IMG/VR virus record: IMGVR_UViG_2574180358_000007
Length of the DNA: 12,024 nucleotides
Direction: 5' to 3' (one strand)
Source of the DNA: a virus
Taxonomy: Duplodnaviria; Heunggongvirae; Uroviricota; Caudoviricetes
Shown here: positions 1 to 11,754 of the stretch, piece by piece
Layout of the letters: each line of letters opens with the position of its first letter
How positions within the stretch are numbered: position 1 is the first letter of the stretch
Program-made: the position numbers and the translations under genes
The notes under the pieces: model-generated
Databases searched by the model: none
What the model was told of the DNA's origin: nothing
The model's input: only the letters and a program-made list of their open reading frames with translations

Positions 1-1209
1 TCATAAAGACTTGCTACTTTCTAATTCTGGGTTTCTGGATCTATTTTTACAACCTGAACCCGGCTGGGAATTTAGTATATCTTTTATCAAATCTTGTTCG
101 ATAGCATTTATTAAGAGCATTATGTCGAATTTATGCATGTCGTCTCCCCCTTCAGTCCTTAGATGTTCGGATGTGGTGAGTTGAGTCGCTAATTTGCTGT
201 TTGGCCCCCAAACAATATTATTCTCGAATTTCCCTTCATGCATTCGGTTATTATATATACAGTATTGTCTAATGTTTAATGCACTGGCTAAATGTACAAT
301 GGCAGTATCTACAGTTATAACAAAATCAGCATGGCGAACCAATGCAAATGAGCATCCTGCATCAGAAAATGGAGACAGAGACACATAATCCAATCCATTG
401 TGATTAATCTGTTTTCCCATGTTAAAAACTATTGTGTGATATCCCTTAAGATTGTTAAGGTAAACTAGTACTTTGTTTATCTGTTCATCAGATAAGGTTC
501 TGCTATTCTGAGAGCCATAAGGGTTAAATATAACTAATTTTTTGTTTTTCTTCCTGAATTCATTTGCAACAATATTTGCTGGCTCATATATTTTGTTGTC
601 AAAATTAAGCGCTGCAGCGTAATCATTATTTTTTATCTTTAGTAAAGATAAAACTTTTTTCATTCTTTCAGATGAGTGAACGGAACGGTTATCGATTATA
701 TTTGTATCAAAAATAGTTACGGCAGGATGATTAAAACAGATAGAGTGTTTAGGTTTAAGTAAATATAGTGTTTGCAATCTGGTTATCGCTGTGTTATCAA
801 AATTTGAGAAGTCAACAACAAGATCTACATTCAGTTTTTTTATCTTTGCTTTTAGTTCGTTAAATTTATTTTTCTCGTAAGAAATAAAGGCATCCACGCC
901 AACAATATCAGTAAAGAGGAATGATACTCTTGGAGGTGCTATCACATATACCACCATACCGGATTCTTGAAGTTGTTTAATAAACCCTGAGGTAACGATG
1001 CCGTCACCAATGGCCTGCATGTGCATGAAAATGCACACTGTTTTATAACTATCCGACTGTAATGATGTTTTCCTTCTGTATCGCATTTTTAGAAATGCCA
1101 GTCTGGCCTTCGTCTTTATCTTTTTTGTTTTAATATTTCGCTGTCTGTTAAGCTGTTTTAATGATGAAATAACATTCATAATGGTACCCTGAAATTCCAA
1201 ATCACTCAT
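1..1209 (-). CDS. Glycosyltransferase family 9 (heptosyltransferase-like) protein; start codon uncertain
   Basis: Minus-strand ORF ending at TAA (bases 3..1). The C-terminal half carries GT9-like motifs read from the translation: KKLVIFNPYGSQNSRTLSDEQ and ADFVITVDTAIVHLASALNIRQ, which resemble the HPGAS..K.WP and VGNDSGPMHLAAA regions of heptosyltransferases. An N-terminal Rossmann-like start is at KTVCIFMHMQAIGDG. The track ORF begins with GTG at 1347 and would overlap tfa; in-frame ATGs lie at 1209, 1179 (AGGG about 7 nt upstream) and 1086, and I chose 1209 without strong support. Codon usage is very A/T-rich and Lys-rich. Confidence 0.55.
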   Translation of the reverse strand: MSDLEFQGTIMNVISSLKQLNRQRNIKTKKIKTKARLAFLKMRYRRKTSLQSDSYKTVCIFMHMQAIGDGIVTSGFIKQLQESGMVVYVIAPPRVSFLFTDIVGVDAFISYEKNKFNELKAKIKKLNVDLVVDFSNFDNTAITRLQTLYLLKPKHSICFNHPAVTIFDTNIIDNRSVHSSERMKKVLSLLKIKNNDYAAALNFDNKIYEPANIVANEFRKKNKKLVIFNPYGSQNSRTLSDEQINKVLVYLNNLKGYHTIVFNMGKQINHNGLDYVSLSPFSDAGCSFALVRHADFVITVDTAIVHLASALNIRQYCIYNNRMHEGKFENNIVWGPNSKLATQLTTSEHLRTEGGDDMHKFDIMLLINAIEQDLIKDILNSQPGSGCKNRSRNPELESSKSL

Positions 1210-1273: not shown

Positions 1274-1873
1274 TTATGCTTGTTTACTCCTTGATTCCAC
1301 TGGGGAAGCAGGCCACTCAATATCCGGTGCACTTGATGTATCAACACGGTTCAGCAATACCCGATACTTTTTCCATGCTTCCAGCAACGAGATTTCTTCC
1401 TCCGTTGCAATTTCCAGATCTGCAGCATCCTGAAGCGGCGCAATATGCTCACTGGCTACCTGCATCAGGTTGTTTTTTGTTTCTTCCGCCTCCCGTATCC
1501 GGAACAGTTTTTCTGCTTCCGTATCCTTCACCCAGGCTATGCCGTTCCACTTCTGATATTCCCCTTCCGGCGACAACCAGGTAACATTTTCCGGTAACGG
1601 ACCGAGTTCAGAAATAAATAACGCATCGCCGAAAGCCACGTCATAAACCGTTTTACCACGATGATCTTCAACGAGATGCCAGGACGCCTCATCACTGTTG
1701 AAAATAGCCACGAAGCCAGCCGGAATATCTGGCGGTACAATATCGGTACTGTTTGCAGGTAGACCTGTATGAGGTGGAATATATGTGTCACCTTCACCAA
1801 TAAATTCATTAGTTCCGGCCAGCAGATTATAAATTTTGATGGTTCGTGATTGTTCACTCATTCTGAATGCCAT
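1274..1873 (-). CDS. tfa: Phage tail fibre assembly protein (lambda Tfa / TfaQ-TfaR-TfaE family)
   Basis: The 199-aa translation [44 protein letters not shown]...[14 protein letters not shown] matches, from memory, the tail fibre assembly proteins of E. coli cryptic prophages (Rac, Qin, e14) almost residue for residue. ATG at 1873, stop TAA at 1276..1274. Confidence 0.85.
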
Positions 1874-1903: not shown

Positions 1904-2371
1904 ATGTTTTTGACGGTGTTTTCCGCGTTACCAGCAGCGTTAACGGTGATGGTGTGTCCATGTGAGCCAATCGCAACGGAGTGCGTGTGTGCACCAATAA
2001 AGGCAGTACGGGACCGGGTTCACAATGAACTCAATGCCGGACATCCGGTACCGGGGTTTAAACTGGTAACAGGAAAACAAGGTAACCGGGCCTGGAGTGA
2101 TGAAGAGGCAGCTCGCGCACTTCTGAAGGACCAGTTCAGGTACAAAACTGAAGAAGTATTCGACTTTAAACTTATTAGTCCCACAAAAGCCGAAAAACTT
2201 ATCAAAAAGGCCAGTCCGCGCCGTTGGTCAAAAGTCGAGGCACTGATAACACGAGCTGATGGTAAACCCACCGTCGTTCCCGAGTCAGACCCACGCCCCG
2301 TACTCAATATCAACCCTGTAAATGATTTCGACGACGTATCCGACGATACGCTAACCGCAGACCTCATCTGA
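1904..2371 (+). pseudogene. 3' remnant of a DUF2800-family (PD-(D/E)xK nuclease-like) phage replication gene; N-terminal part missing
   Basis: A 155-aa ORF ends 16 bp before the DUF2815 gene on the same strand, the position a full-length DUF2800 gene (about 400 aa) occupies in this conserved module. The translation FKLVTGKQGNRAWSDEEAARALL...KPTVVPESDPRPVL looks like the C-terminal region of such proteins as I recall them. In-frame stops lie immediately upstream and tfa on the opposite strand ends only 30 bp away, so no room exists for the N-terminal two thirds. Confidence 0.4.
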
Positions 2372-2386
2372 TTTAAGGAAATACCC

Positions 2387-2935
2387 ATGAAACTGAAGCT
2401 GAACAATGTTCGTCTGGCCTTCCCGTCTCTGTTTGAAGCTAAAACTGTAAACGGCGAAGGCGAGCCGCGTTTCTCCGCAGTATTTTTAATGTCACCCAAA
2501 CACCCACAACTGGAAGAAATCCGTAAAGCTATGAAGCAGGTAGCGAAGGAAAAATGGGGAGAGAAGTGGGAGCCCATTTATAGCCAGCTGGAGAAAAAAC
2601 TCAATCTGTGCCTGCATGATGGTGATGAAAAAGCAGAGTATGAAGGCTTCCCCGGCAATTTCTTCCTGAATGCTGCTAACAAAGCGCGCCCAGCTGTTCT
2701 TGATCGCGATCGTTCGCCACTAATTCAGGCTGATGGACGTCCCTATGCAGGGTGCTATGTAAACGCCGTTATCGATATCTGGGCACAGGACAATAATTTC
2801 GGTAAACGCATTAATGCCTCACTCGGCGGAGTCCAGTTCCTGCGAGACGGCGATGCATTCGCTGGCGGCGGAGTGGCAAGCGCTGACGATTTCGACGATA
2901 TCAGCGAAGGCGCTGATGCTGAAGCACTAATTTAA
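2387..2935 (+). CDS. DUF2815-family phage protein (predicted ssDNA-binding, replication module)
   Basis: The translation MKLKLNNVRLAFPSLFEAK...RFSAVFLM...LCLHDGDEKAEYEGFPGNFF...LDRDRSPL...GRPYAGCYVNAVIDIWAQDNNFGKRINASLGGVQFLRDGDAFAGG follows the DUF2815 consensus as I recall it. SD AAGGA lies about 8 nt upstream of ATG 2387. Position between the DUF2800 remnant and PolA fits the known module order. Confidence 0.8.
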   Translation: MKLKLNNVRLAFPSLFEAKTVNGEGEPRFSAVFLMSPKHPQLEEIRKAMKQVAKEKWGEKWEPIYSQLEKKLNLCLHDGDEKAEYEGFPGNFFLNAANKARPAVLDRDRSPLIQADGRPYAGCYVNAVIDIWAQDNNFGKRINASLGGVQFLRDGDAFAGGGVASADDFDDISEGADAEALI

Positions 2936-2986
2936 AAATATTCATCCCCCAGCTACGTGCTGGGGTATCTCATGAGGGAAAGTATA

Positions 2987-3628
2987 ATGTCACAGCCCGT
3001 ATTAACTAATCACCTTAAAACTCAAATCATCAATAACGCACTTGAGAAAGCGGGTATTCCCAAACGTAAATCAGCACTACGAGCTGCTCGTGTTGAATGG
3101 GCCGAACGTGTTCGGCTTGCAGCTATCGGGGGCGTAGAGAAAGAAGCTGAAATATTAAAAAATATAAAAAAGATTGAATCCATGGTCACAAAAATCCCTG
3201 ATTCATTAAAAACCAATAGTTCTTTAATTCGAAAAGATTGCTGCATATATCTCAATCTGGCTGGAGCCAGAGCAAACATTTATTTCAATGGCAACTACAG
3301 AGGTTATGAATCAGGAGCCCCCGAGCATATTAATAAAATAGCACCTGCAGAATTTACTCTACTTGGCGAAGATCCTCTGGTAACGGAGTTTTATAGCTTT
3401 GATGCTCTCTACACACAAATTAAAAGTGATGAAACCGAAATCATACAGAACGTCAGCGCGGCTCTAAATAAAGTTCGGACAGTAAAACGATTACTGGATG
3501 TATGGCCCGAAGCTAAAGAACTGCTTCCAACAGACGCACCGCCAGTCCCTTTAGCACCAGCAGTACATCGAGAGACATTAAATGAAATGATAGGCCTTCC
3601 TACCAATACAGTGTCTGATACTCAATAA
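2987..3628 (+). CDS. Hypothetical protein (A/T-rich insert between DUF2815 and DNA polymerase)
   Basis: Uninterrupted ORF; GAGGGA lies 7 nt upstream of ATG 2987 (alternative ATG 2972, track start GTG 2957). No family recognised from the translation. Composition is A/T-richer than the flanking replication genes. Confidence 0.5.
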   Translation: MSQPVLTNHLKTQIINNALEKAGIPKRKSALRAARVEWAERVRLAAIGGVEKEAEILKNIKKIESMVTKIPDSLKTNSSLIRKDCCIYLNLAGARANIYFNGNYRGYESGAPEHINKIAPAEFTLLGEDPLVTEFYSFDALYTQIKSDETEIIQNVSAALNKVRTVKRLLDVWPEAKELLPTDAPPVPLAPAVHRETLNEMIGLPTNTVSDTQ

Positions 3629-4311
3629 CAAGGGGGATGCTTATTATATGATTTTGAACGTTTTACAATCTCGTTAAGAGGCGTGAAATCAAAATCTCTG
3701 AATAACACATCAGGATACTTCGCTCTTGCTTTATCCTGCAGACCAGTTAAAGTATTTTTTGTGTTACCCAACATTGTATTAACCGCCACTACATGTCTAA
3801 TTTCTGGAGGTTTATCTATACCACCAGAAATTGCTTCATTAAGAACCGACGCCAGTGGGGTTTGTCCCTTACTTGTTGAATCCCACAGCGTCATTAACAG
3901 ACGAGCTGCGTCTATAAATAGCTTTTTGTCAGCATTTGGCTTGACAGTAATACCAGAACTACCTGAGCCAGAACCGGAACGTTCTATTGCTGCACTGGTA
4001 TCCGATTTCATAGGATTAAATAACGGCAGCTCTGTACAACCGATACGCCGAATGAAATCCTTTGCAACATCTCTACCACAGAAAAAAGCCCCTGTACAAT
4101 TTTCATCAGAGCGTTTTTTAAATGAAAAACAATAGTACTGATCGGTTAACGGATAACCGGAATAACTGGTTTTAGTTTGTCCAGTAATAAGTTTCAGGTG
4201 TGCAACAGGCTGAATAATAAAATCCCGAACTATCGCATCTTTTATGTCGTTACCACGGTGACAATAATATTCAGGTAATCCATTAGGCTGTCTCTTATTA
4301 CCCACAGTCAT
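3622..4311 (-). CDS. Hypothetical two-domain protein with a Gly/Ser linker, encoded antisense to the replication operon
   Basis: 229-aa ORF with a strong SD (AAGGAGA, 6 nt spacer) upstream of ATG at 4311..4309. An internal SGSGSGSSG linker separates a Cys/His-containing N-terminal half from the C-terminal half. The 3' end overlaps the 3' end of the convergent gene 2987..3628 by 7 bp. No family recognised. Confidence 0.6.
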   Translation of the reverse strand: MTVGNKRQPNGLPEYYCHRGNDIKDAIVRDFIIQPVAHLKLITGQTKTSYSGYPLTDQYYCFSFKKRSDENCTGAFFCGRDVAKDFIRRIGCTELPLFNPMKSDTSAAIERSGSGSGSSGITVKPNADKKLFIDAARLLMTLWDSTSKGQTPLASVLNEAISGGIDKPPEIRHVVAVNTMLGNTKNTLTGLQDKARAKYPDVLFRDFDFTPLNEIVKRSKSYNKHPPCY

Positions 4312-4372
4312 TAGTTGTCTCCTTTAATTCATGATATCTAGCATTTAACCATATACCATATGAGGATATTTT

Positions 4373-6436
4373 ATGTCCAATATACTATGGGGCGACCTGG
4401 AAACCTATTGTGACATTCCGATCAACAACGGTACCCATGCGTATGCCGAAGGCGTTGAAGTGATGCTTTTCGCATGGGCTATCAACGACGGGCCAGTAAA
4501 CGTGTGGGATATCACTGCCGGTGGTGGTATTCCACACGGCTTATACGAAGCAATCGCAGACCCTGAAACCCTGCTTTATTTCCATAACTCTCACTTCGAC
4601 CGCACCGTTCTGCGTTATGCAATGCCGCGACTGGCACCGCCTGTCGAACGTTGGCGCGACACGATGGTGCAGGCGCTGGCGCACGGTCTTCCGGGGTCTC
4701 TGGGGGAACTCTGCGAAGTACTAGGCGTCCCGCAAGACAAAGCGAAGGACAAAGAAGGTAAAGCGCTGATCCAGCTGTTCTGTAAGCCACGCCCGAAAAA
4801 CAGCAAACTGCGTCGGGCCACCAGTAAAACCCACCCGGAAGAATGGCGGCGCTTTGTTGCTTACGCCGGACTGGATATCGAGGCAATGCGCGAAGTCTAT
4901 AAACGTCTGCCGAAGTGGAATTATCAGGGGACAGAACTGGCGCTCTGGCATCGTGATCAGCAGATCAATGACCGGGGCGTCTGCATGGACATGCAACTCG
5001 CACGCGCTGCGATCGAAGCGGTAGACCAGGAACAAAAGCGCCTGGCAAAGCGTACACAGGAAATGACTGATGGCGAAGTGCAGGCAGCCACACAACGAGA
5101 CGCGTTGATTAAGCACATTGTTGAATCCTACGGTGTGGAGCTACCAGACATGCAACGCAGTACTCTGGAACGTCGTATTGCCGACCCCGATTTACCATCT
5201 GCCGTGAAAGAACTGCTGGCTATCCGACTGCAGGCCAGTACTACCAGCACCAGTAAATACAAGGCACTAATGAAAGGCGTAAGCCACGACGGGCGCTTAC
5301 GCGGTACGCTACAGTTCTGCGGGGCGTCACGTACCGGTCGTTGGGCCGGACGGCTATTCCAGCCCCAGAATCTTCCCCGCCCTTCACTAAAACAGGAACA
5401 AATAGACGAAGGCATCGAAGCACTGAAAGCCGGATGTGCAGACCTGCTGTTTGACAATATCATGGAACTAACCAGTTCAGCGTTACGTGGCTGCATTATC
5501 GCGCCAACAGGCAAAAAACTGGTGGTAAGTGACTTGTCGAACATTGAAGGCCGTATGCTGGCATGGTTGGCAGGAGAAGAATGGAAACTGAATGCATTCA
5601 GAGAGTACGACGCCGGAACGGGTTCGGACTTATATAAACTGGCGTATGCAAAAGCTTTCGATATTGCACCAGATGATGTTGATAAACACATGCGTCAGAT
5701 CGGTAAAGTCATGGAGCTCGGTCTGGGTTATGGTGGTGGTGTATCGGCTTTCATCACTTTTGCGCTGGTTTACGGTCTCGATCTCGACGAGCTGGCGAAC
5801 GCCGCATTGCCAAACATTCCCCGCGATGTTATCCGCGAGGCGAAAAGCTGGTACGACGAATCGGTTAAACGCAAGTCAACCTACGGGCTTTCTGAACGGG
5901 TATTTATCGCCTGCGACTCACTTAAACGTCTCTGGCGCAGGGCGCACCCGGCGACCTGCGATTTCTGGTACGAACTGGAGCGCACCGTCCGCACAGCAAT
6001 CGCCACACCGCAAAAAACATTGTATTGCGGCTATCTTAAAATCCGACGTGATGGCGCGTGGCTGCGCATACAGCTACCATCCGGACGCGCTGTATGCTAC
6101 CCGTCTCCGGTTATCGAAAAAGGGAATATCACCTACAGGGGTGTTAACTCTTATTCGCGTAAATGGCAACGACTCAAAACCTACGGCGGAAAGCTGGTGG
6201 AGAACGTCACCCAAGCAGCCGCCCGCGACGTTCTGGCCGGAAACATGCCGCTGATCGAGGATGCAGGTTACAGCATTGTGCTGACGGTACACGATGAGGT
6301 AATCACCGAGGCGCCGGACACTGACGATTTCAACGATAAAGCGCTTTCCGCGCTGCTCTCCACTAACCCCGAGTGGGCACCCGATATCCCGCTGAACGCT
6401 GGCGGCTTCGAGGCGTACCACTACCGTAAGGATTAG
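4373..6436 (+). CDS. Family A DNA polymerase with 3'-5' exonuclease domain (phage-type, no 5'-3' exonuclease domain)
   Basis: Exonuclease motifs WGDLET (Exo I) and [12 protein letters not shown] (Exo II). Polymerase motif [20 protein letters not shown], motif [17 protein letters not shown], motif [18 protein letters not shown] lies 6 nt upstream of ATG 4373. Confidence 0.9.
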
Positions 6437-6449
6437 CTGATCGCTGTCA

Positions 6450-6478
6450 TTGCTGCTTTGCTAAATATTGCTTATTTT
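6450..6478 (+). promoter_or_regulatory. Putative sigma70-type promoter upstream of the TIR-like gene (TTGCTG, 17 nt spacer, TATTTT)
   Basis: Hexamers read by eye in the 53-bp gap between the polA stop and the TIR-like start. The match to consensus is weak and the -10 element sits very close to the SD. Confidence 0.2.
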
Positions 6479-6489
6479 ATAGGAAAATA

Positions 6490-7251
6490 ATGATGCAGGA
6501 TCTCAATGAAATGGCTCTCAAATACCCACACCCTGTCGAAACTTTTCGTCAATTTTTAGTCGAATCCGGATTTGATGTTACCGGAGAAGAAAACAAAGCC
6601 GGTCATGATTGTTATCGTTTAAGTAATGGTGCCATCATAACGCTTTACCACACCGGAACGATTTTGATTCAAGGCTCACAAGCGGCAAAACCAGAGGTTG
6701 AAGCCATTATTAATGAACACTTGGGTAACGCGCCAGCTCAACGAGTTCAGCCAGCCCAGTTTCAAGAGCCAGCCAAAAAGATTTTCATCGTTCACGGTCA
6801 CGACCATGCAGCAAAAGAGCAGCTTGAGCTCATTCTTCATAAGCTTGGGTTACCTGATCATTTTATTTTGCAGAATACAGGCGGTACTGGACTTACGATA
6901 ATTGAAGAACTTGAGCGTGAAATTGGTCAAGGGCAGACAGCGACTCGTTTCGGCATTGTTCTTCTCACTCCCGATGATGTGGGGTACTCCAAAAGAGACG
7001 GTCAAGAAGCAGCCCTGCCCAGGGCTCGTCAAAACGTAGTTCTAGAAATGGGGATGTTGTTATCATCACTCGGGCGCAGTAACGTGGTCATCTTGCAGAA
7101 GCAACACCTTGAACAGCCTTCTGATGCTGCGGGTATTCTTTATCTCAACTTTAATGATCATGTTCGAGAAACTGTACCTCGCTTAATCCAGCGTCTTAAA
7201 CAGGCCGGTTTCACATTTAATGAAGCTCAAATAGCGAACGCTTCATCTTAA
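6490..7251 (+). CDS. TIR-like domain protein (COG4271 / Cap12-PycTIR-type predicted nucleotide-binding fold) with an N-terminal domain of about 95 aa of unknown function
   Basis: The C-terminal approx. 150 aa, KIFIVHGHDHAAKEQLELILHKLGL...IIEELERE...FGIVLLTPDDVGYSKRDG...PRARQNVVLEMGMLLSSLGRSNVVILQKQHLEQPSDAAGILYL, follows the TIR-like consensus as I recall it (FIVHGhD ... AIVLlTPDD ... RARQNVifELGyf.GkLGr.rV ... PSD..G). SD AGGA lies 5 nt upstream of ATG 6490. An intrinsic terminator follows immediately downstream. Confidence 0.6.
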   Translation: MMQDLNEMALKYPHPVETFRQFLVESGFDVTGEENKAGHDCYRLSNGAIITLYHTGTILIQGSQAAKPEVEAIINEHLGNAPAQRVQPAQFQEPAKKIFIVHGHDHAAKEQLELILHKLGLPDHFILQNTGGTGLTIIEELEREIGQGQTATRFGIVLLTPDDVGYSKRDGQEAALPRARQNVVLEMGMLLSSLGRSNVVILQKQHLEQPSDAAGILYLNFNDHVRETVPRLIQRLKQAGFTFNEAQIANASS

Positions 7252-7279
7252 TCAATCATTTTCCTAAAATGTAAAAAAA

Positions 7280-7301
7280 CCCTGCAAATGCAGGGTTTTT
7301 T
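7280..7301 (+). terminator. Rho-independent terminator downstream of the TIR-like gene (A-tract, GC hairpin, T-tract; potentially bidirectional)
   Basis: aaaaaaa-CCCTGCaaatGCAGGG-TTTTTTgttt is read directly from the sequence, 29 bp after the TAA stop at 7249..7251. Confidence 0.75.
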
Positions 7302-7317
7302 GTTTGAGGTAACCCCT

Positions 7318-7539
7318 ATGTCATTTAAATATCGGGACAGTCCCCTTTATTACCGGACTGCGCGGGAGGCTTTGCGCCTTGAGCAGATCGGCGAGTACGA
7401 CCGGGCGGCAAAAGCCTGGGCCAAAGCCAACCGCGAATCACGTAACGCACTGAATCAGGACTGGAGCGAACGCCGGTCTGATTTTTGCCTGATGCAGAAC
7501 ATGCGCGAAAAGCGTAAGGCGGTGGACGATGGCGTATGA
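7318..7539 (+). CDS. Small hypothetical phage protein (73 aa) translationally coupled to VRR-NUC
   Basis: ATG 7318 with GAGG about 10 nt upstream. Its stop TGA 7537..7539 overlaps the VRR-NUC start ATG 7529 (ATGgcgtATGA arrangement). The track ORF start at 7288 lies inside the terminator hairpin and is rejected. Confidence 0.5.
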   Translation: MSFKYRDSPLYYRTAREALRLEQIGEYDRAAKAWAKANRESRNALNQDWSERRSDFCLMQNMREKRKAVDDGV

Positions 7540-7801
7540 GCGTGAAAGCCTTATCGAAAAGCACCTCATCGCCGAAGTGAAAAAGGCTGGCGGGATCGCC
7601 TTTAAGTTTGTGTCACCCGGTCGCCGCTCGGTACCGGATCGGATTGTCCTGTTACCCGGCGGTCGTCTCGTCTTTGTCGAATGCAAAGCACCTGGCAAAC
7701 CACCACGCACCGACCAGCTGCGCGAGCATGAACGGCTGCGCGCGCTGGGCTTTACCGTGGTGGTGCTGGATAGCAAAAATCTTGAGGGGATATTATTTTG
7801 A
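7529..7801 (+). CDS. VRR-NUC domain nuclease (PD-(D/E)xK fold)
   Basis: 90-aa product with PDRIVLLPGGRLVFVECKAPGKPP, matching the VRR-NUC D...E.K core. It sits in the expected module position upstream of the SNF2 helicase. Confidence 0.8.
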   Translation: MAYERESLIEKHLIAEVKKAGGIAFKFVSPGRRSVPDRIVLLPGGRLVFVECKAPGKPPRTDQLREHERLRALGFTVVVLDSKNLEGILF

Positions 7802-8437
7802 TTTATCTTTAGGGCTGAGCAAACATGAACGGAAAGCATTCCGTTCTTCAGTACTGGATTTGATAAACGTGAAGTCCTTATCTGCATCTAATAGCTTAAA
7901 CGCCACCTCGTTAGTATCACATTTACCCACCAGAACCTTCTCACCCACGTTGTTAACAAGATGGTATCCTGGTATTTCTCTAACGATATATTTACCTGAA
8001 GAAACCCAAGCACTTATTTGAGCAACTGACGAGGTACATAACATTGTGAAGAGTGCAATAAGAACAACGTTGCTACCAGAAAGACTCCGAAAAGATTTAT
8101 GCCCATCCATTAACAGCTGCCACGTTAACAGTATGGGATAAAATGCAATAAAACAAATAGCGAAAACAATTGGTTTTCCGCCACTCATGTAAAAACCGAT
8201 CGGATTAACCAATCCAACAAACGAAAAATACAACACCGCCGCAACAACCGTAGTTAAAACAAAAGAGAGCCAGTACCTACTTAACTTATAAACCCTAAAT
8301 GAAGTAGCTATCGCTATAAAAATAGGCACTGAAGCCAAACCAGTAAATGAAAGAGTTTTTAGCAGCGAGCTAACATCTATCAATATAAAGTCAGCAGGAT
8401 AACTAAAAAAAATAAGCGAAAGACCATTGATAAACAT
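7793..8437 (-). CDS. Predicted integral membrane protein (about 5 TM helices) with a small soluble C-terminal domain; function unknown
   Basis: 214-aa ORF with ATG at 8437..8435 and no clear SD. Hydrophobic stretches LSLIFFSYPADFILIDV, GLASVPIFIAIATSF, WLSFVLTTVVAAVLYFSFVGLV, IVFAICFIAFYPILLTW, VVLIALFTMLCTSSV are followed by a polar approx. 65-aa tail. Visibly A/T-rich, antisense to the flanking replication genes, and overlapping the VRR-NUC 3' end by 9 bp. Confidence 0.6.
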   Translation of the reverse strand: MFINGLSLIFFSYPADFILIDVSSLLKTLSFTGLASVPIFIAIATSFRVYKLSRYWLSFVLTTVVAAVLYFSFVGLVNPIGFYMSGGKPIVFAICFIAFYPILLTWQLLMDGHKSFRSLSGSNVVLIALFTMLCTSSVAQISAWVSSGKYIVREIPGYHLVNNVGEKVLVGKCDTNEVAFKLLDADKDFTFIKSSTEERNAFRSCLLSPKDKSK

Positions 8438-8560
8438 ACACCAATAAATATGTAAAAATAGAGATCGCAGTTATTAGCGGAATTTTTTGGTCCCATAAAG
8501 ACTCCGAACGTTCAATTGTGGTCATATTCATATCATCATTATTTACATTGAGTGGCGTTT

Positions 8561-9958
8561 ATGAGTATAAACTTATTCTCACCCCATCCATATCAAAACC
8601 TCATCATAAACCACGAAATTGACACTCTGCGCTGCAACATCTGGGCGGGTATGGGAATGGGTAAAACCGTGGCGACGCTCACCACGCTGGAAGATCTTTT
8701 TATGGCGGGAGCGGAGACACAGCCCGCGCTGGTGTTGGCACCGCTGCGCGTAGCCGCCAGCACATGGCCGGATGAAGCGGTTAAATGGGGGCATTTGCGC
8801 AATATCGAGGTGCAGCCGATTATCGGTAATGCCAAAGCACGCGCGGCGGCATTGGCGAACAGCAACGCCAGCGTGTTTACAATCAACTACGACAATCTGG
8901 TCTGGCTGGTGGAAGAGCTGGGCGACAGCTGGCCGTTCGGTACCGTCATTCCGGATGAAAGCACCCGGCTAAAATCCTTCCGGCTGCGAGGTGGTGGTAA
9001 GCGCGCGGCGGCGCTGGGCAAAGTGGCGCATAAGTATGTCCGGCGCTGGATAAATCTCACCGGGACGCCAGCACCGAACGGCCTGGTAGATTTGTGGGGA
9101 CAAGCGTGGTTTGTGGACCAGGGGCAACGTCTCGGACGCACTTACGGCGCGTTTACCTCACGCTGGTTCAACTCGATACAGTTTCCAGGGCAGAGCTGGA
9201 CCAAACTGGAGCCGTTTGCTCACTCACAGGCTGAAATACAGCGAGCATTAGCCGATGTGACCCTCTCGCTGGATGCGGCCGACTGGTTCGATATCAAAGA
9301 CCCCATCCATAACGTAATCCGCGTGGATATGCCGCCGAAGGCCCGTCAGCAGTATCGTGAAATGGAAAAGGAAATGTTCCTCGAGCTGAATGGCGAAGGC
9401 ATCGAAGCACCGAACGCCGCGGCAAAGACACTGAAGTGTCTTCAAATCGCCAGTGGCGCAGTATACACAGACGACACCGGAAGTTGGTCAGAACTGCATG
9501 ACACCAAACTACAGGCGCTGGACAGCATACTGACCGAAGCAGCTGGCGCACCTGTGCTGGTTGCTTATCACTGGAAACACGATCTTGAACGCTTGCTTAA
9601 AGCATTCCCTCGCGGTCGTCACCTCGACCAGGATCCACAGACACTGCGCGACTGGAATTCCGGAAAGATTCCTGTTCTCTTTGCACACCCAGCCAGCGCG
9701 GGCCACGGCCTGAACATGCAGGACGGCGGGAATATACTGGTATTTTTCTCACACTGGTGGGACCTGGAGCAATATCAGCAAATTATTGAACGTATCGGCC
9801 CCACCAGGCAGATACAGGCCGGACACAATCGTCCGGTATTTATTCACCACATTATTGCTGCCGACACTATGGACGAAATGGTGATGGAGCGGCGCAACTC
9901 AAAACGAACAGTGCAGGACATCCTGCTCGATGCCATGAAAAAGAGAGGTATAGCATGA
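8561..9958 (+). CDS. SNF2-family (DEAD-like) helicase of the phage replication module
   Basis: Walker A GMGKT, motif II IPDEST, SNF2 motif III LTGTPAPNGLVDLW, and C-terminal helicase motifs HPASAGHGLNMQ and QQIIERIGPTRQ. ATG 8561 is preferred over the track GTG 8552; only a weak SD is present. Confidence 0.85.
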   Translation: MSINLFSPHPYQNLIINHEIDTLRCNIWAGMGMGKTVATLTTLEDLFMAGAETQPALVLAPLRVAASTWPDEAVKWGHLRNIEVQPIIGNAKARAAALANSNASVFTINYDNLVWLVEELGDSWPFGTVIPDESTRLKSFRLRGGGKRAAALGKVAHKYVRRWINLTGTPAPNGLVDLWGQAWFVDQGQRLGRTYGAFTSRWFNSIQFPGQSWTKLEPFAHSQAEIQRALADVTLSLDAADWFDIKDPIHNVIRVDMPPKARQQYREMEKEMFLELNGEGIEAPNAAAKTLKCLQIASGAVYTDDTGSWSELHDTKLQALDSILTEAAGAPVLVAYHWKHDLERLLKAFPRGRHLDQDPQTLRDWNSGKIPVLFAHPASAGHGLNMQDGGNILVFFSHWWDLEQYQQIIERIGPTRQIQAGHNRPVFIHHIIAADTMDEMVMERRNSKRTVQDILLDAMKKRGIA

Positions 9959-10155
9959 GCGAGAAACCCGACGATTTACTCACCCCGGATGAAGTATGCC
10001 AAAAGTTAGGTATTACACAGAAAACGCTATGTGAGTGGAATATTAAGCATCGTCATCGGGCTATCCTGGCACCAATTCGTTTCAGTGCAAAAGTAGTTCG
10101 TTATGAGCGCCGCAATGTCGACGCTTTTATTCAAAAGTGTCGCAGCCGGTATTAA
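9955..10155 (+). CDS. AlpA/Xis-family helix-turn-helix protein (putative excisionase or transcriptional regulator)
   Basis: 66 aa, LLTPDEVCQKLGITQKTLCEW...VVRYERRNVDAFI, matching the AlpA-type pattern (HTH followed by a conserved VRY/W segment). The start ATG overlaps the helicase stop (ATGA), with AGAGAGG upstream. Confidence 0.65.
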   Translation: MSEKPDDLLTPDEVCQKLGITQKTLCEWNIKHRHRAILAPIRFSAKVVRYERRNVDAFIQKCRSRY

Positions 10156-11549
10156 CCTCGCCGCCGTAGCAATGCCACCTGCGCAAGTATGCTCCGCTCG
10201 TGAGCCTCGAAAGCTTCGCGCTTTAACGCAATCTCTTCCTGCAAAATCTCATCAGAAAAGTCGTAATGTTCTGCCATCGGGTCATCTGACTTGCTGGAGT
10301 GGTGAAGGCAAAGGAGGCTGATTTCCCTTCGGTCTGATCGGGAATAGCCTCTTTCCTTCATCAAGGCAATAACATTGCTCTTAAGGAATTTACGGCACAT
10401 CGTATTAAATGCACCGTCTTTCCCTTTAACAGTCCCATCATGTTTTATTCCTTTTACAGCCCCATCCGGGCTGTATGTTTTCACTAGCTTATCCAGTGAT
10501 CGTTTTGAAAATGGCTGCATTGGATCACGCGGCTGCAAAAATACATAATCCCTGTTGCACTCAGGAACTGAATCACGCCATGCTTTCTGCTCGTCGATAA
10601 TCCGCCGGATCTCCGGCGTTATTGGCAGGCGGAAAGCCTTTTGTGTTTTCATAGCCCCTCGCATGCCGATAACCCCTTCAGGATAAACAATTTCGCCAGT
10701 CTCCTCGTGAACGTAGTCCCAGCGCAGGTTATGGACATTAATCGGACGAACGCCGGTGATGATCATGAAGCGAACAGCATTCTTCTGGTGTACAGAGGTG
10801 CAGGCGGCAACATTGAGCCAGAGCCGGGCGATTGACTCAATATCGGTAAAAAGCCGTGTGGGGGTGGGTTTCTGTACGCGGGAGGAAACATAATCATCTG
10901 GCAGACTGGCAGCAACATTGCGACCGTTACAAAGAGTAGGTGCGCAGAACTTCCAGAACCGACGGAGCTCGGCAAACAACTCCAGGGCGTTATTGTTCGA
11001 GCGAGTGGCGATCCACTCGTCCAGCACTTCCACTAGCCGATTGTATGTTACGTCGCCGAACACCTCGCGCTCGCCGAACGTGGCTTTAATCCGGTCGATA
11101 CGCACCCCGTAGGTTGTGAAACTGTCCGGGCTCAGCTTCTGCCGGGCTACTTTAGCTTTGAGGTCATCCCGGTACATTTCCAGCGCTGCATGTACGGACT
11201 CTGCCCGCAGTCCACCGTCAGCCATACCTAGTGCTTTTTCGCGCGCCAGCTGGATAGCGAGCTCCGGCCACTCGCCAAGCTTTTTACCTTTGAGGCCCAT
11301 CTTTTTTGGAAACTCGGCGTAAAATGTAACCTTACCGGCTTTGCTGAAATCGATACGGAGATAGTTCTCTTTTTCGTATTTGGAACGGCGAGCCACGCCG
11401 GAAGCGGCGAGGATGATTTTGGCAGCAGCAACACAGATTTTCATGTGTGCGCTGATATAGGGGGGTTTACAGGCGTCCCATTTTTCAGATGCGGCTAAAA
11501 CATCGTCATTATTGGGGCTATCCGGATTATGTGTTACAGTGCGCGGCAT
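10152..11549 (-). CDS. int: Tyrosine-type site-specific integrase (P4-like family)
   Basis: An N-terminal arm-binding-like segment (YLRIDFSKAGKVTFYAEF) precedes the catalytic domain (MIITGVRPINVHNLRWDYV ... LLCLHHSSKSDDPMAEHYD, with a C-terminal Tyr candidate). ATG at 11549..11547 has AAGGA 6 nt upstream. The track start is TTG at 11555, and an alternative ATG lies at 11444. Confidence 0.85.
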   Translation of the reverse strand: MPRTVTHNPDSPNNDDVLAASEKWDACKPPYISAHMKICVAAAKIILAASGVARRSKYEKENYLRIDFSKAGKVTFYAEFPKKMGLKGKKLGEWPELAIQLAREKALGMADGGLRAESVHAALEMYRDDLKAKVARQKLSPDSFTTYGVRIDRIKATFGEREVFGDVTYNRLVEVLDEWIATRSNNNALELFAELRRFWKFCAPTLCNGRNVAASLPDDYVSSRVQKPTPTRLFTDIESIARLWLNVAACTSVHQKNAVRFMIITGVRPINVHNLRWDYVHEETGEIVYPEGVIGMRGAMKTQKAFRLPITPEIRRIIDEQKAWRDSVPECNRDYVFLQPRDPMQPFSKRSLDKLVKTYSPDGAVKGIKHDGTVKGKDGAFNTMCRKFLKSNVIALMKERGYSRSDRREISLLCLHHSSKSDDPMAEHYDFSDEILQEEIALKREAFEAHERSILAQVALLRRRG

Positions 11550-11754
11550 TCTCAATCCTTATCTGCGTAGGCGCAGAAAACAAGCTCACACATATAAGTC
11601 TTTTCTACGGGACAAAATGCAATGTGTTGCGGTTTTGTGTTGCTGGACTGAGTTTATCAAGGTTAAATACACTGGATCAACATACAGTAAGTTAATGACG
11701 GTAAAGCATACAAACTCGATACAACTTACTGATTTTAAAATGATTTAACGGTAA

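Follow-up and report, generated by a model that had tools for sequence, protein, structure and literature searches.

Exchangeable cargo slots within the replication module of a temperate enterobacterial prophage lineage

The 12,024-nucleotide stretch of DNA analysed here (the window; IMG/VR record IMGVR_UViG_2574180358_000007, Caudoviricetes) is a defective Escherichia coli prophage remnant beside yfhL, in which phage replication genes are interspersed with four A/T-rich genes. We read the region, with a probability of about 0.8, as replication genes of a temperate enterobacterial phage, a module that carries three independently reassorting cargo hotspots. Slot 1 lies between the genes for DUF2815 and the family A DNA polymerase (PolA), slot 2 between those for PolA and VRR-NUC, and slot 3 between those for VRR-NUC and the SNF2-family helicase. 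A sequence-only reading of the same DNA had singled out four open reading frames (ORFs), 2987..3628 (+), 3622..4311 (−), 6490..7251 (+) and 7793..8437 (−), as moron-type insertions at positions often occupied by anti-phage defence genes. All four ORFs are present at these coordinates, and both the observation and its interpretation are essentially right. The features of the module and its slots are as follows.

2387..2935, plus strand: DUF2815/Enc34-type single-stranded DNA-binding protein, core, left flank of slot 1 (PF10991, 5.4e-44; phrog_112)
2936..4372, unstranded: slot 1 (DUF2815/PolA), 1437 nt, G+C content about 0.40 (core-gene mapping)
2987..3628, plus strand: Nmad5-family gene, optional (PF18757, 1.7e-54; phrog_1965)
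3622..4311, minus strand: 229-residue UCP028583 (PF27729) protein, a nested add-on downstream of Nmad5 (precomputed Pfam tag)
4373..6436, plus strand: PolA with an N-terminal 3'-5' exonuclease region, core (PF00476; phrog_17, 2.4e-126)
6437..7313, plus strand: TIR cassette of 877 nt, with an A/T-rich leader, ribosome-binding site (RBS), ORF and terminator (junction comparison with loci L070, L073 and L059)
6490..7251, plus strand: 253-residue TIR protein, an N-terminal domain of about 95 residues followed by a CAP12/Pycsar-type TIR domain (PDC-S35; PF10137, 5.8e-31)
7274..7301, unstranded: TIR terminator hairpin between runs of A and T, AAAAAACCCTGCAAATGCAGGGTTTTTT (12-bp stem, A6 and T6 flanks)
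7318..7539, plus strand: ANR-family small regulator, near-core within slot 2 (NF033650, 3.9e-19; phrog_2227)
7529..7801, plus strand: VRR-NUC nuclease, core, left flank of slot 3 (phrog_93, 2.3e-30; RefSeq annotation)
7793..8531, minus strand: slot-3 membrane-protein gene, frameshifted, with ORF 7793-8437 as its downstream piece (intact homologues and alleles)
8405..8412, minus strand: homopolymer tract, T8 on the coding strand and T7 in intact alleles (L007, FDAARGOS_943)
8552..9958, plus strand: SNF2-family helicase, core, right flank of slot 3 (PF00176; phrog_62, 6.5e-157; RefSeq start 8561)

Variation at three junctions of the replication module

Relatives were collected through PolA (80 IMG/VR and 10 GTDB loci), their core genes were mapped and the three slots were extracted, about 95 related loci being compared in all. 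The counts for E. coli come from a megablast search of 5,426 complete genomes. The PolA backbone is common, being present in 159 of these genomes, at 95-100% nucleotide identity in 157 of them, and the lineage extends to Salmonella, Klebsiella, Enterobacter, Pectobacterium, Serratia and Morganella. The cargo of the window is accessory rather than core, since among the 159 E. coli genomes sharing PolA the pair of Nmad5 and the 229-residue gene occurs in 26, the window's TIR allele in 10 and the 214-residue gene at 7793..8437 in six.

Across the related prophages the slots hold dozens of alternative cargos or stand empty. Slot 1 shows 30 sequence states among 91 loci, 20 of which are essentially empty (73-98 nt, containing only a hairpin); slot 2 shows 48 states among 95 loci, the smallest of 215 nt being ANR alone; and slot 3 shows 44 states among 93 loci, measures 0 nt in one further locus, L049, and holds a 159-nt filler in ten. 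This filler, the commonest "empty" state of slot 3 (L051, L059, L064 and others), is itself a conserved 57-residue sense ORF (family F13). Empty or minimal states are thus seen at all three junctions, with the flanking genes adjacent in some relatives, and two of the junctions can be placed exactly. In the minimal relatives L070, L073 and L059 the PolA stop codon, the letters CCCT and the ANR start follow one another directly, and the TIR cassette of the window sits exactly between the PolA stop and this "CCCT-ATG"; the stop codon of VRR-NUC and the start codon of SNF2 overlap in L049. The relatives in RefSeq carry, in slot 1, Nmad5 with the 229-residue gene, a 493-residue SIR2 protein or antisense hypothetical proteins (199 or 209 residues); in slot 2, TIR with ANR, ANR with DUF4406, ANR with DUF7446 or an antisense ATP-binding protein; and in slot 3, a Dcm methyltransferase with a small gene, DUF6338, three hypothetical proteins and others.

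We found 69 slot combinations among 83 loci and 25 combinations among the 33 loci with a PolA that shares 97% identity or more with that of the window. The TIR state of the window co-occurs with five slot-1 states and six slot-3 states. The 25 combinations in 33 loci, together with these TIR pairings, indicate that the slots swap cargo independently. The four genes occupy three variable positions rather than four, the 229-residue gene being nested downstream of Nmad5. Transposon- or integron-like flanking repeats were considered as the insertion mechanism and rejected: no direct repeats bracket any slot, and an inverted repeat that brackets the TIR ORF is specific to certain alleles.

The composition of the flagged genes, previously judged A/T-richer by eye, was borne out by calculation. 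Their G+C contents are 0.408 (Nmad5), 0.394 (229-residue gene), 0.450 (TIR) and 0.375 (214-residue ORF), compared with 0.502 for the DUF2800 remnant upstream of DUF2815, 0.497 for DUF2815, 0.541 for PolA, 0.559 for ANR, 0.557 for VRR-NUC and 0.550 for SNF2. At third codon positions the G+C content (GC3) is 0.28-0.38 in the flagged genes versus 0.48-0.64 in the main replication genes. Every segment of equal length within the core genes has a G+C content of at least 0.48, and relative to this distribution the flagged genes have z-scores of −4.0 to −6.7. Their relative synonymous codon usage is uncorrelated with that of the pooled core (r = −0.20 to 0.06), compared with correlations of 0.51-0.79 for DUF2815, PolA, ANR, VRR-NUC, SNF2 and the integrase. 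The sliding G+C profile shows three troughs, located at the flagged genes, and among the relatives the mean slot G+C lies below that of the core by 0.166 (slot 1), 0.070 (slot 2) and 0.150 (slot 3). The uniform composition ascribed to the backbone holds for the main replication genes (0.497-0.559) but not for a small helix-turn-helix (HTH) gene at 9955-10155 (0.448), and the backbone is thus only roughly uniform. The low value of this core gene, and the general variability of G+C content in short genes, would fit an artefact of codon usage peculiar to individual ancestral core genes, without horizontal acquisition. However, presence and absence of the genes on a near-identical backbone, the exact junctions and the size of the z-scores refute this explanation, to which we attach next to no credence.

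Two of the flagged genes (3622..4311 and 7793..8437) lie on the minus strand, as described, and both overlap a neighbor tail-to-tail at the 3' end, by 7 nt (3622-3628) and 9 nt (7793-7801). The transcript of the module itself cannot serve to express these two antisense genes.

Cargo of the slots and its possible functions

The slot ORFs from all loci group into 98 families; in 36 of them the representatives reach at least 150 residues, and PADLOC matches were obtained for about one-third of these larger families. Slot 1 can hold several antisense membrane proteins and, according to PADLOC and Pfam, PDC-S25, a SIR2 protein of 500 residues (3.8e-158); the same scans place a PDC-S35 TIR protein, a GHKL-ATPase, a BrxP/SspD-like PAPS-reductase and a type II methyltransferase in slot 2. 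Slot 3 carries BstA in nine loci (4.6e-113), PDC-S42 with two companion genes in six and Dcm methyltransferases in ten, and further a second PAPS-reductase, a weak TIR match and DUF6338. HNH, Band-7, DUF4145 and antirepressor genes are also found among the cargo. The mean G+C difference is −0.165 for antisense versus −0.095 for sense cargo families. BstA, PDC-S25, PDC-S35, PDC-S42, the type II/orphan methyltransferases and the BrxP/SspD-like PAPS reductases in relatives support the expectation that the slots are sites of defence cargo. BstA is an experimentally validated prophage protein of abortive infection (Abi), whose gene is located downstream of the repressor (Owen et al. 2021, PMC8585504). 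The homologues found here (L068:10751-11674 and eight other loci) lie antisense between VRR-NUC and SNF2, unlike those of BTP1-like prophages. A 43.7-kb prophage with BstA between acpS and yfhH of the enterotoxigenic E. coli strain H10407 has been reported, although not among the hotspots of that study (Hochhauser et al. 2023, PMC10121019); H10407 is among the genomes matched by the PolA of the window.

When the four inserts of the window were scored with PADLOC, the TIR protein of slot 2 was identified as PDC-S35 and the other three gave no match. The alignment to PDLC05003, the PDC-S35 profile, covers residues 11-253 of the protein and positions 3-245 of the 245 in the profile (1.6e-109). 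Its "NVVLEMG" motif aligns to "NVVFEFG" of Cap12, with Glu186 at the position of the conserved glutamate, which we take to be the catalytic residue of TIR NADase effectors. The score against the NCBIfam Cap12 equivalog is 32 bits, compared with a cutoff of 450. Pfam and PADLOC scans detected no CD-NTase, cyclase, SAVED or ThsA partner gene in the window. The TIR gene is thus not part of a CBASS, Pycsar or Thoeris system, because the window lacks the CD-NTase, cyclase or ThsA partner. PDC-S35 belongs to the PDC systems, 145 candidates that were obtained by "guilt-by-embedding" (Payne et al., bioRxiv 10.1101/2024.01.29.577857), and the TIR protein is a credible defence candidate. Judged by its family, it would most likely act as an NAD+-degrading abortive-infection protein, with the N-terminal domain of about 95 residues sensing the infection. 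Scans of this domain against Pfam (E ≤ 10) yielded nothing beyond a sub-threshold match of residues 1-97 (6490-6780) to DUF3378 (E = 0.005; 17 bits versus a cutoff of 27). We take DUF3378 to be the substrate-binding N-terminal domain of RNase HIII, and the hint is that the putative sensor might bind nucleic acid.

The separate terminator attributed to the TIR gene was confirmed as the hairpin that follows the stop codon at 7274-7301, and its stem is kept through compensatory changes in the alleles whose proteins are about 99% and 71% identical. The inverted repeat around the TIR ORF consists of two 20-nt arms (6472-6491 and 7255-7274), 16 of whose 20 positions are complementary, a match reached by 0.3% of shuffles. 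Its 3' arm is complementary to the RBS region, and the repeat is kept in the 90-100% alleles and not in the 71% allele. Pairing of the 5' and 3' ends may damp translation of a toxic gene, or the repeat may be due to chance. The small ORF assigned to the backbone downstream of the cassette is the ANR-family regulator found in nearly all relatives, but it starts at 7318 rather than 7288; position 7288 falls inside the TIR terminator hairpin. The ANR family is named for the negative regulation of AraC-type activators and is an odd occupant of a phage replication module.

The first gene of slot 1 has its own RBS and begins immediately behind the hairpin of DUF2815. It matches Nmad5 with 185.5 bits versus a Pfam gathering cutoff of 27; a profile search of PDB sequences and NCBIfam both returned no match. 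Two alleles of Nmad5 (~99% and ~81% identity) account for its presence in 59 of the 159 E. coli elements; the gene stands alone in slot 1 of L082, L085 and L095 and also occurs in Salmonella and Morganella relatives. Dhillonvirus phages can do without Nmad5; cloning of the gene is toxic, and a K-to-E substitution in it escapes the Tmn defence (PMC11846954). The gene is widely linked to this type of module, is co-oriented with it and is no recognisable defence gene. We read it as a lytic-phase, optional gene, probably with a phage-side function, rather than as a defence moron; it would be co-transcribed with the replication genes and play a role in DNA modification or counter-defence.

The antisense 229-residue protein nested downstream of Nmad5 has no match itself in our local copy of Pfam, and its assignment to UCP028583 (PF27729) comes from the precomputed tag carried by all 17 of its homologues, including the 99%-identical P0001. 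Nmad5 and this gene were considered as an obligate two-gene system, which was rejected, as each occurs without the other and the 81% Nmad5 allele is paired with a different small antisense gene. The UCP028583 profile search retrieved 433 clusters at 50% identity, nearly all of them standalone proteins of about 200-230 residues. The AlphaFold2 model (pLDDT 82.6, pTM 0.80) contains an α/β N-terminal domain, a Gly/Ser linker and a helical C-terminal domain; NCBIfam gave no match. One homologue occupies the same slot of another prophage, one is embedded in a type I restriction-modification locus with HigB/HTH, one lies beside a SIR2 protein of 1,056 residues and another beside Mrr and an insertion sequence. 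These varied contexts point to an independently mobile single gene, for which a defence role is plausible on context alone.

The gene of slot 3 is interrupted in the window. The 214-residue ORF described at 7793..8437 is present, but it represents the downstream part of a frameshifted gene of 243-245 residues rather than a complete gene. Homologues of the protein have 241-245 residues, and the intact form possesses five transmembrane helices and a C-terminal β domain; the AlphaFold2 model of the intact protein (pLDDT 72) shows the five transmembrane helices, a small β domain and a terminal helix. The T8 tract occurs in the window and in the identical relatives L001 (strain L6-21) and L009, while T7 and an intact ORF are found in L007 and in the 99.9%-identical allele of FDAARGOS_943, which encodes 243 residues. 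The slip from T7 to T8 is the only difference between the window allele and the FDAARGOS_943 allele, and it could have inactivated the gene recently or act as a slipped-strand on/off switch. The family comprises 26 clusters, all from Enterobacterales, has no Pfam domain and is the commonest slot-3 family of the sample, with 16 members. By analogy with known exclusion proteins, its product would most likely be a superinfection-exclusion or Abi-type membrane factor that is truncated or off in this strain.

The family is always antisense between VRR-NUC and SNF2 in the E. coli, Salmonella, Klebsiella and Mixta contexts examined, and this position does not change where the prophage carries a different integrase and attachment site. 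Its alleles are only 13-26% identical and retain the YYGYPxxFIxID motif and a C-terminal GxC...C domain. The confinement to one slot and one orientation, the conserved motifs at such low identity and the abundance of the family would all be expected if the slot-3 gene, and perhaps Nmad5 as well, were an ancient fast-evolving resident under diversifying selection, whose alleles are swapped by recombination and not inserted, and whose low G+C content reflects its own history or the composition of a membrane protein. Slot 3 is, however, empty or filled with BstA, Dcm, PDC-S42 or DUF6338 in many close relatives, and a GC3 of 0.335, when the flanks have about 0.6, is difficult to account for unless the gene had a separate origin. 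We consider residence a serious possibility, with somewhat less than an even chance; for the slot-3 gene itself, allelic replacement fits better than foreign insertion. In our reading, slot 3 holds the lineage's own fast-diverging five-helix membrane protein, switched off or truncated here by the T7-to-T8 slip. The moron-type signature ascribed to the four genes is upheld by the junctions and the composition, with the qualifications that Nmad5 looks phage-side and that the slot-3 family lives in its slot alone. Neither of the two outcomes named beforehand as refuting it, a uniform composition or conservation of the four genes in place, was observed.

Several points weigh against our reading of the module and its cargo. 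The locus set over-samples E. coli and includes a few duplicate loci. Among the four genes of the window the TIR gene alone matches the defence library, and the PDC families are candidates. Nmad5 is a determinant of Tmn sensitivity in Dhillonvirus and not a defence gene (PMC11846954); UCP028583 showed no recognisable fold in fold-match searches of the model or in a profile search against PDB sequences, and its homologues occur in ordinary metabolic neighborhoods too. For the slot-3 protein, frameshifted here, searches of Pfam, PHROG, PADLOC, NCBIfam, PDB and BFVD gave no homologue with a known function. In a sigma-70 consensus scan none of the four genes received a promoter, and the seven sites found were fewer than the 10.9 expected in shuffles. 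Furthermore, the remnant lacks the repressor and the structural genes, and regulation may be disrupted.

The cargo could be accessory and yet mostly non-defence, serving the phage (DNA modification, counter-defence, replication accessory) or lysogenic conversion. The co-orientation of Nmad5 with the replication genes, its dispensability and effect on Tmn sensitivity in the lytic Dhillonvirus, the small sense-strand genes that often fill slot 2 (DUF4406, DUF7446, HNH, Arc and antirepressors) and the roughly two-thirds of the cargo families of at least 150 residues without a PADLOC match are all consistent with this. Against it, the slots do hold BstA, SIR2, TIR and PDC-S42, and the antisense orientation, own terminators and stronger A/T bias fit morons expressed from the prophage. 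We regard a mostly non-defence cargo as a tentative alternative. Rather doubtful, in turn, is the joint proposal that UCP028583 and the slot-3 five-helix family are unrecognised single-gene anti-phage systems, UCP028583 as an intracellular Abi protein or sensor and the slot-3 family in membrane superinfection exclusion, with the T7/T8 tract as a slipped-strand switch of the latter.

The prophage remnant and its remaining genes

The window lies between yfhH and yfhL, and three complete E. coli chromosomes match it at 100% identity. Leftward from the tyrosine integrase, which adjoins yfhL (from 11764), the order is the small HTH gene, SNF2, VRR-NUC, ANR, PolA, DUF2815 and the last ~124 codons of DUF2800. 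The following features complete the backbone.

1998..2371, plus strand: C-terminal remnant of the DUF2800 (PD-(D/E)XK/Cas4-like) nuclease (PF10926, profile positions 272-368 of 368 only; partial in RefSeq)
9955..10155, plus strand: small HTH protein, AlpA/excisionase-like (RefSeq; weak TIGR01764; PF05930 at the homologous position of L103)
10152..11555, minus strand: tyrosine integrase; the host gene yfhL follows from 11764

The intact prophages among the relatives measure about 36-43 kb, and three of them have been induced and sequenced (vB_EcoM-606R2, vB_EcoM-689R2 and vB_EcoM-611R5), and DUF2815 is found in every relative examined. The window prophage is a defective remnant, because everything between a lambdoid-type tail-fibre fragment and the 3' end of DUF2800 is gone. 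The DUF2800 gene of the relatives encodes 433 residues and their homology to the window begins at about 1998; the 5' part of the ORF at 1904-2371 is a tail-fibre fragment fused to the DUF2800 remnant. At the junction near 1998 (window ~1873-1998) the 3' end of DUF2800 is fused to a fragment of a lambdoid side tail fibre, and this fusion indicates a large internal deletion of the prophage. In three identical complete genomes an IS903B element (1,066 extra bases in the alignment to L001; L001 7906-8874) lies between tfa and the DUF2800 remnant; the window is without it.

The missing segment, the tfa pseudogene, IS903B at the deletion junction and the frameshifted slot-3 gene raise the question of whether the flagged genes are decaying relics in a dead prophage, with no current function in the strain. 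However, the ORFs of PolA, SNF2, VRR-NUC, the integrase, Nmad5, UCP028583 and TIR are intact and 99-100% identical to the copies in intact prophages, and the frameshift is a single homopolymer slip that is missing from the 99.9% identical sister allele. We judge such decay unlikely.

The small HTH gene is annotated only in some relatives (L002 13361-13555 versus window 9955-10155), and its position may be a fourth variable one. At the other end of the remnant, a family-9 glycosyltransferase gene (1-1179, minus strand; G+C content 0.34) lies beside the tail-fibre and tfa remnants and looks like another moron-type cargo, possibly involved in lipopolysaccharide modification. The tail-fibre-assembly pseudogene contains a full-length match (1332-1530, minus strand; 219 bits) to the Rfam IS009 family of small-RNA candidates.

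Proposed mechanism, known systems and significance

In the minimal state of the module the flanking core genes abut or overlap, whereas the junctions of most lineages are filled by one, two or three A/T-rich genes that are foreign in composition. Cargo would be exchanged junction by junction, most plausibly through homologous recombination in the conserved flanking core genes. Antisense cargo and terminator-bearing cassettes could be expressed from the repressed prophage and would benefit the lysogen; the TIR cassette and, on context alone, the nested antisense UCP028583 gene are the candidate defence genes in slots 2 and 1.

The moron concept of Juhala and Hendrix was developed for lambdoid phages, and the TIR cassette resembles such morons in lying between genes that are adjacent in relatives, in its deviant composition and in its own terminator; genes of this kind are presumed to be expressed from the prophage. 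In contrast, the slots are found inside the replication module and not in late or immunity regions, the consensus scan revealed no promoter, and Nmad5 looks co-transcribed rather than autonomous. P2-like prophages and P4 satellites reportedly carry defence hotspots (a finding attributed to Rousset et al. 2022). In Felsduovirus prophages, "dedicated positions" for defence have been described (Hochhauser et al. 2023, PMC10121019). The slots share with these hotspots fixed positions, conserved flanks and highly diverse cargo that combines known defence genes with unknowns. There are, however, differences: the present lineage is defined by PolA, SNF2 and VRR-NUC, with three small slots among essential replication genes, and its cargo consists mostly of single small genes, of whose larger families about one-third match PADLOC.

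Like the BstA system of the cI-N hotspot (Owen et al. 2021, PMC8585504), slot 3 of nine loci holds a prophage-borne abortive-infection gene in a mosaic hotspot, but in antisense orientation between VRR-NUC and SNF2, and the window itself has no BstA. The TIR protein agrees with PDC-S35 and CAP12-type TIR proteins in its full-length match to the profile hidden Markov model, in PF10137 and in the Cap12-like motif with its glutamate, and differs from CBASS, Pycsar and Thoeris in having no partner signal gene in the window. P22 SieA, T4 Imm and lambda RexB are superinfection-exclusion membrane proteins of phages. The slot-3 protein is comparable to them in being small, multi-pass, antisense and extremely divergent between close phages; no similarity of sequence or fold was found, and the likeness would be a functional analogy only.

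The organisation is thus of a known type, that of morons and prophage hotspots, in a lineage for which we found no prior description: the literature on PDC-S35, UCP028583, DUF2800 plus DUF2815 hotspots and yfhL prophages yielded no account of these slots. For the window, the upshot is one defence candidate (TIR), two orphans of interest and a probably phage-side gene (Nmad5). Prophage hotspots are among the best sources of new defence systems, and the slots of this lineage offer a compact, easily cloned list of dozens of small, mostly unannotated cargo genes. If UCP028583 and the slot-3 family were indeed anti-phage, the slots would be a productive mining ground, with about two-thirds of the 36 larger families unannotated for defence. 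Defence cargo can interleave with essential replication genes, and not only occupy prophage ends or immunity regions.

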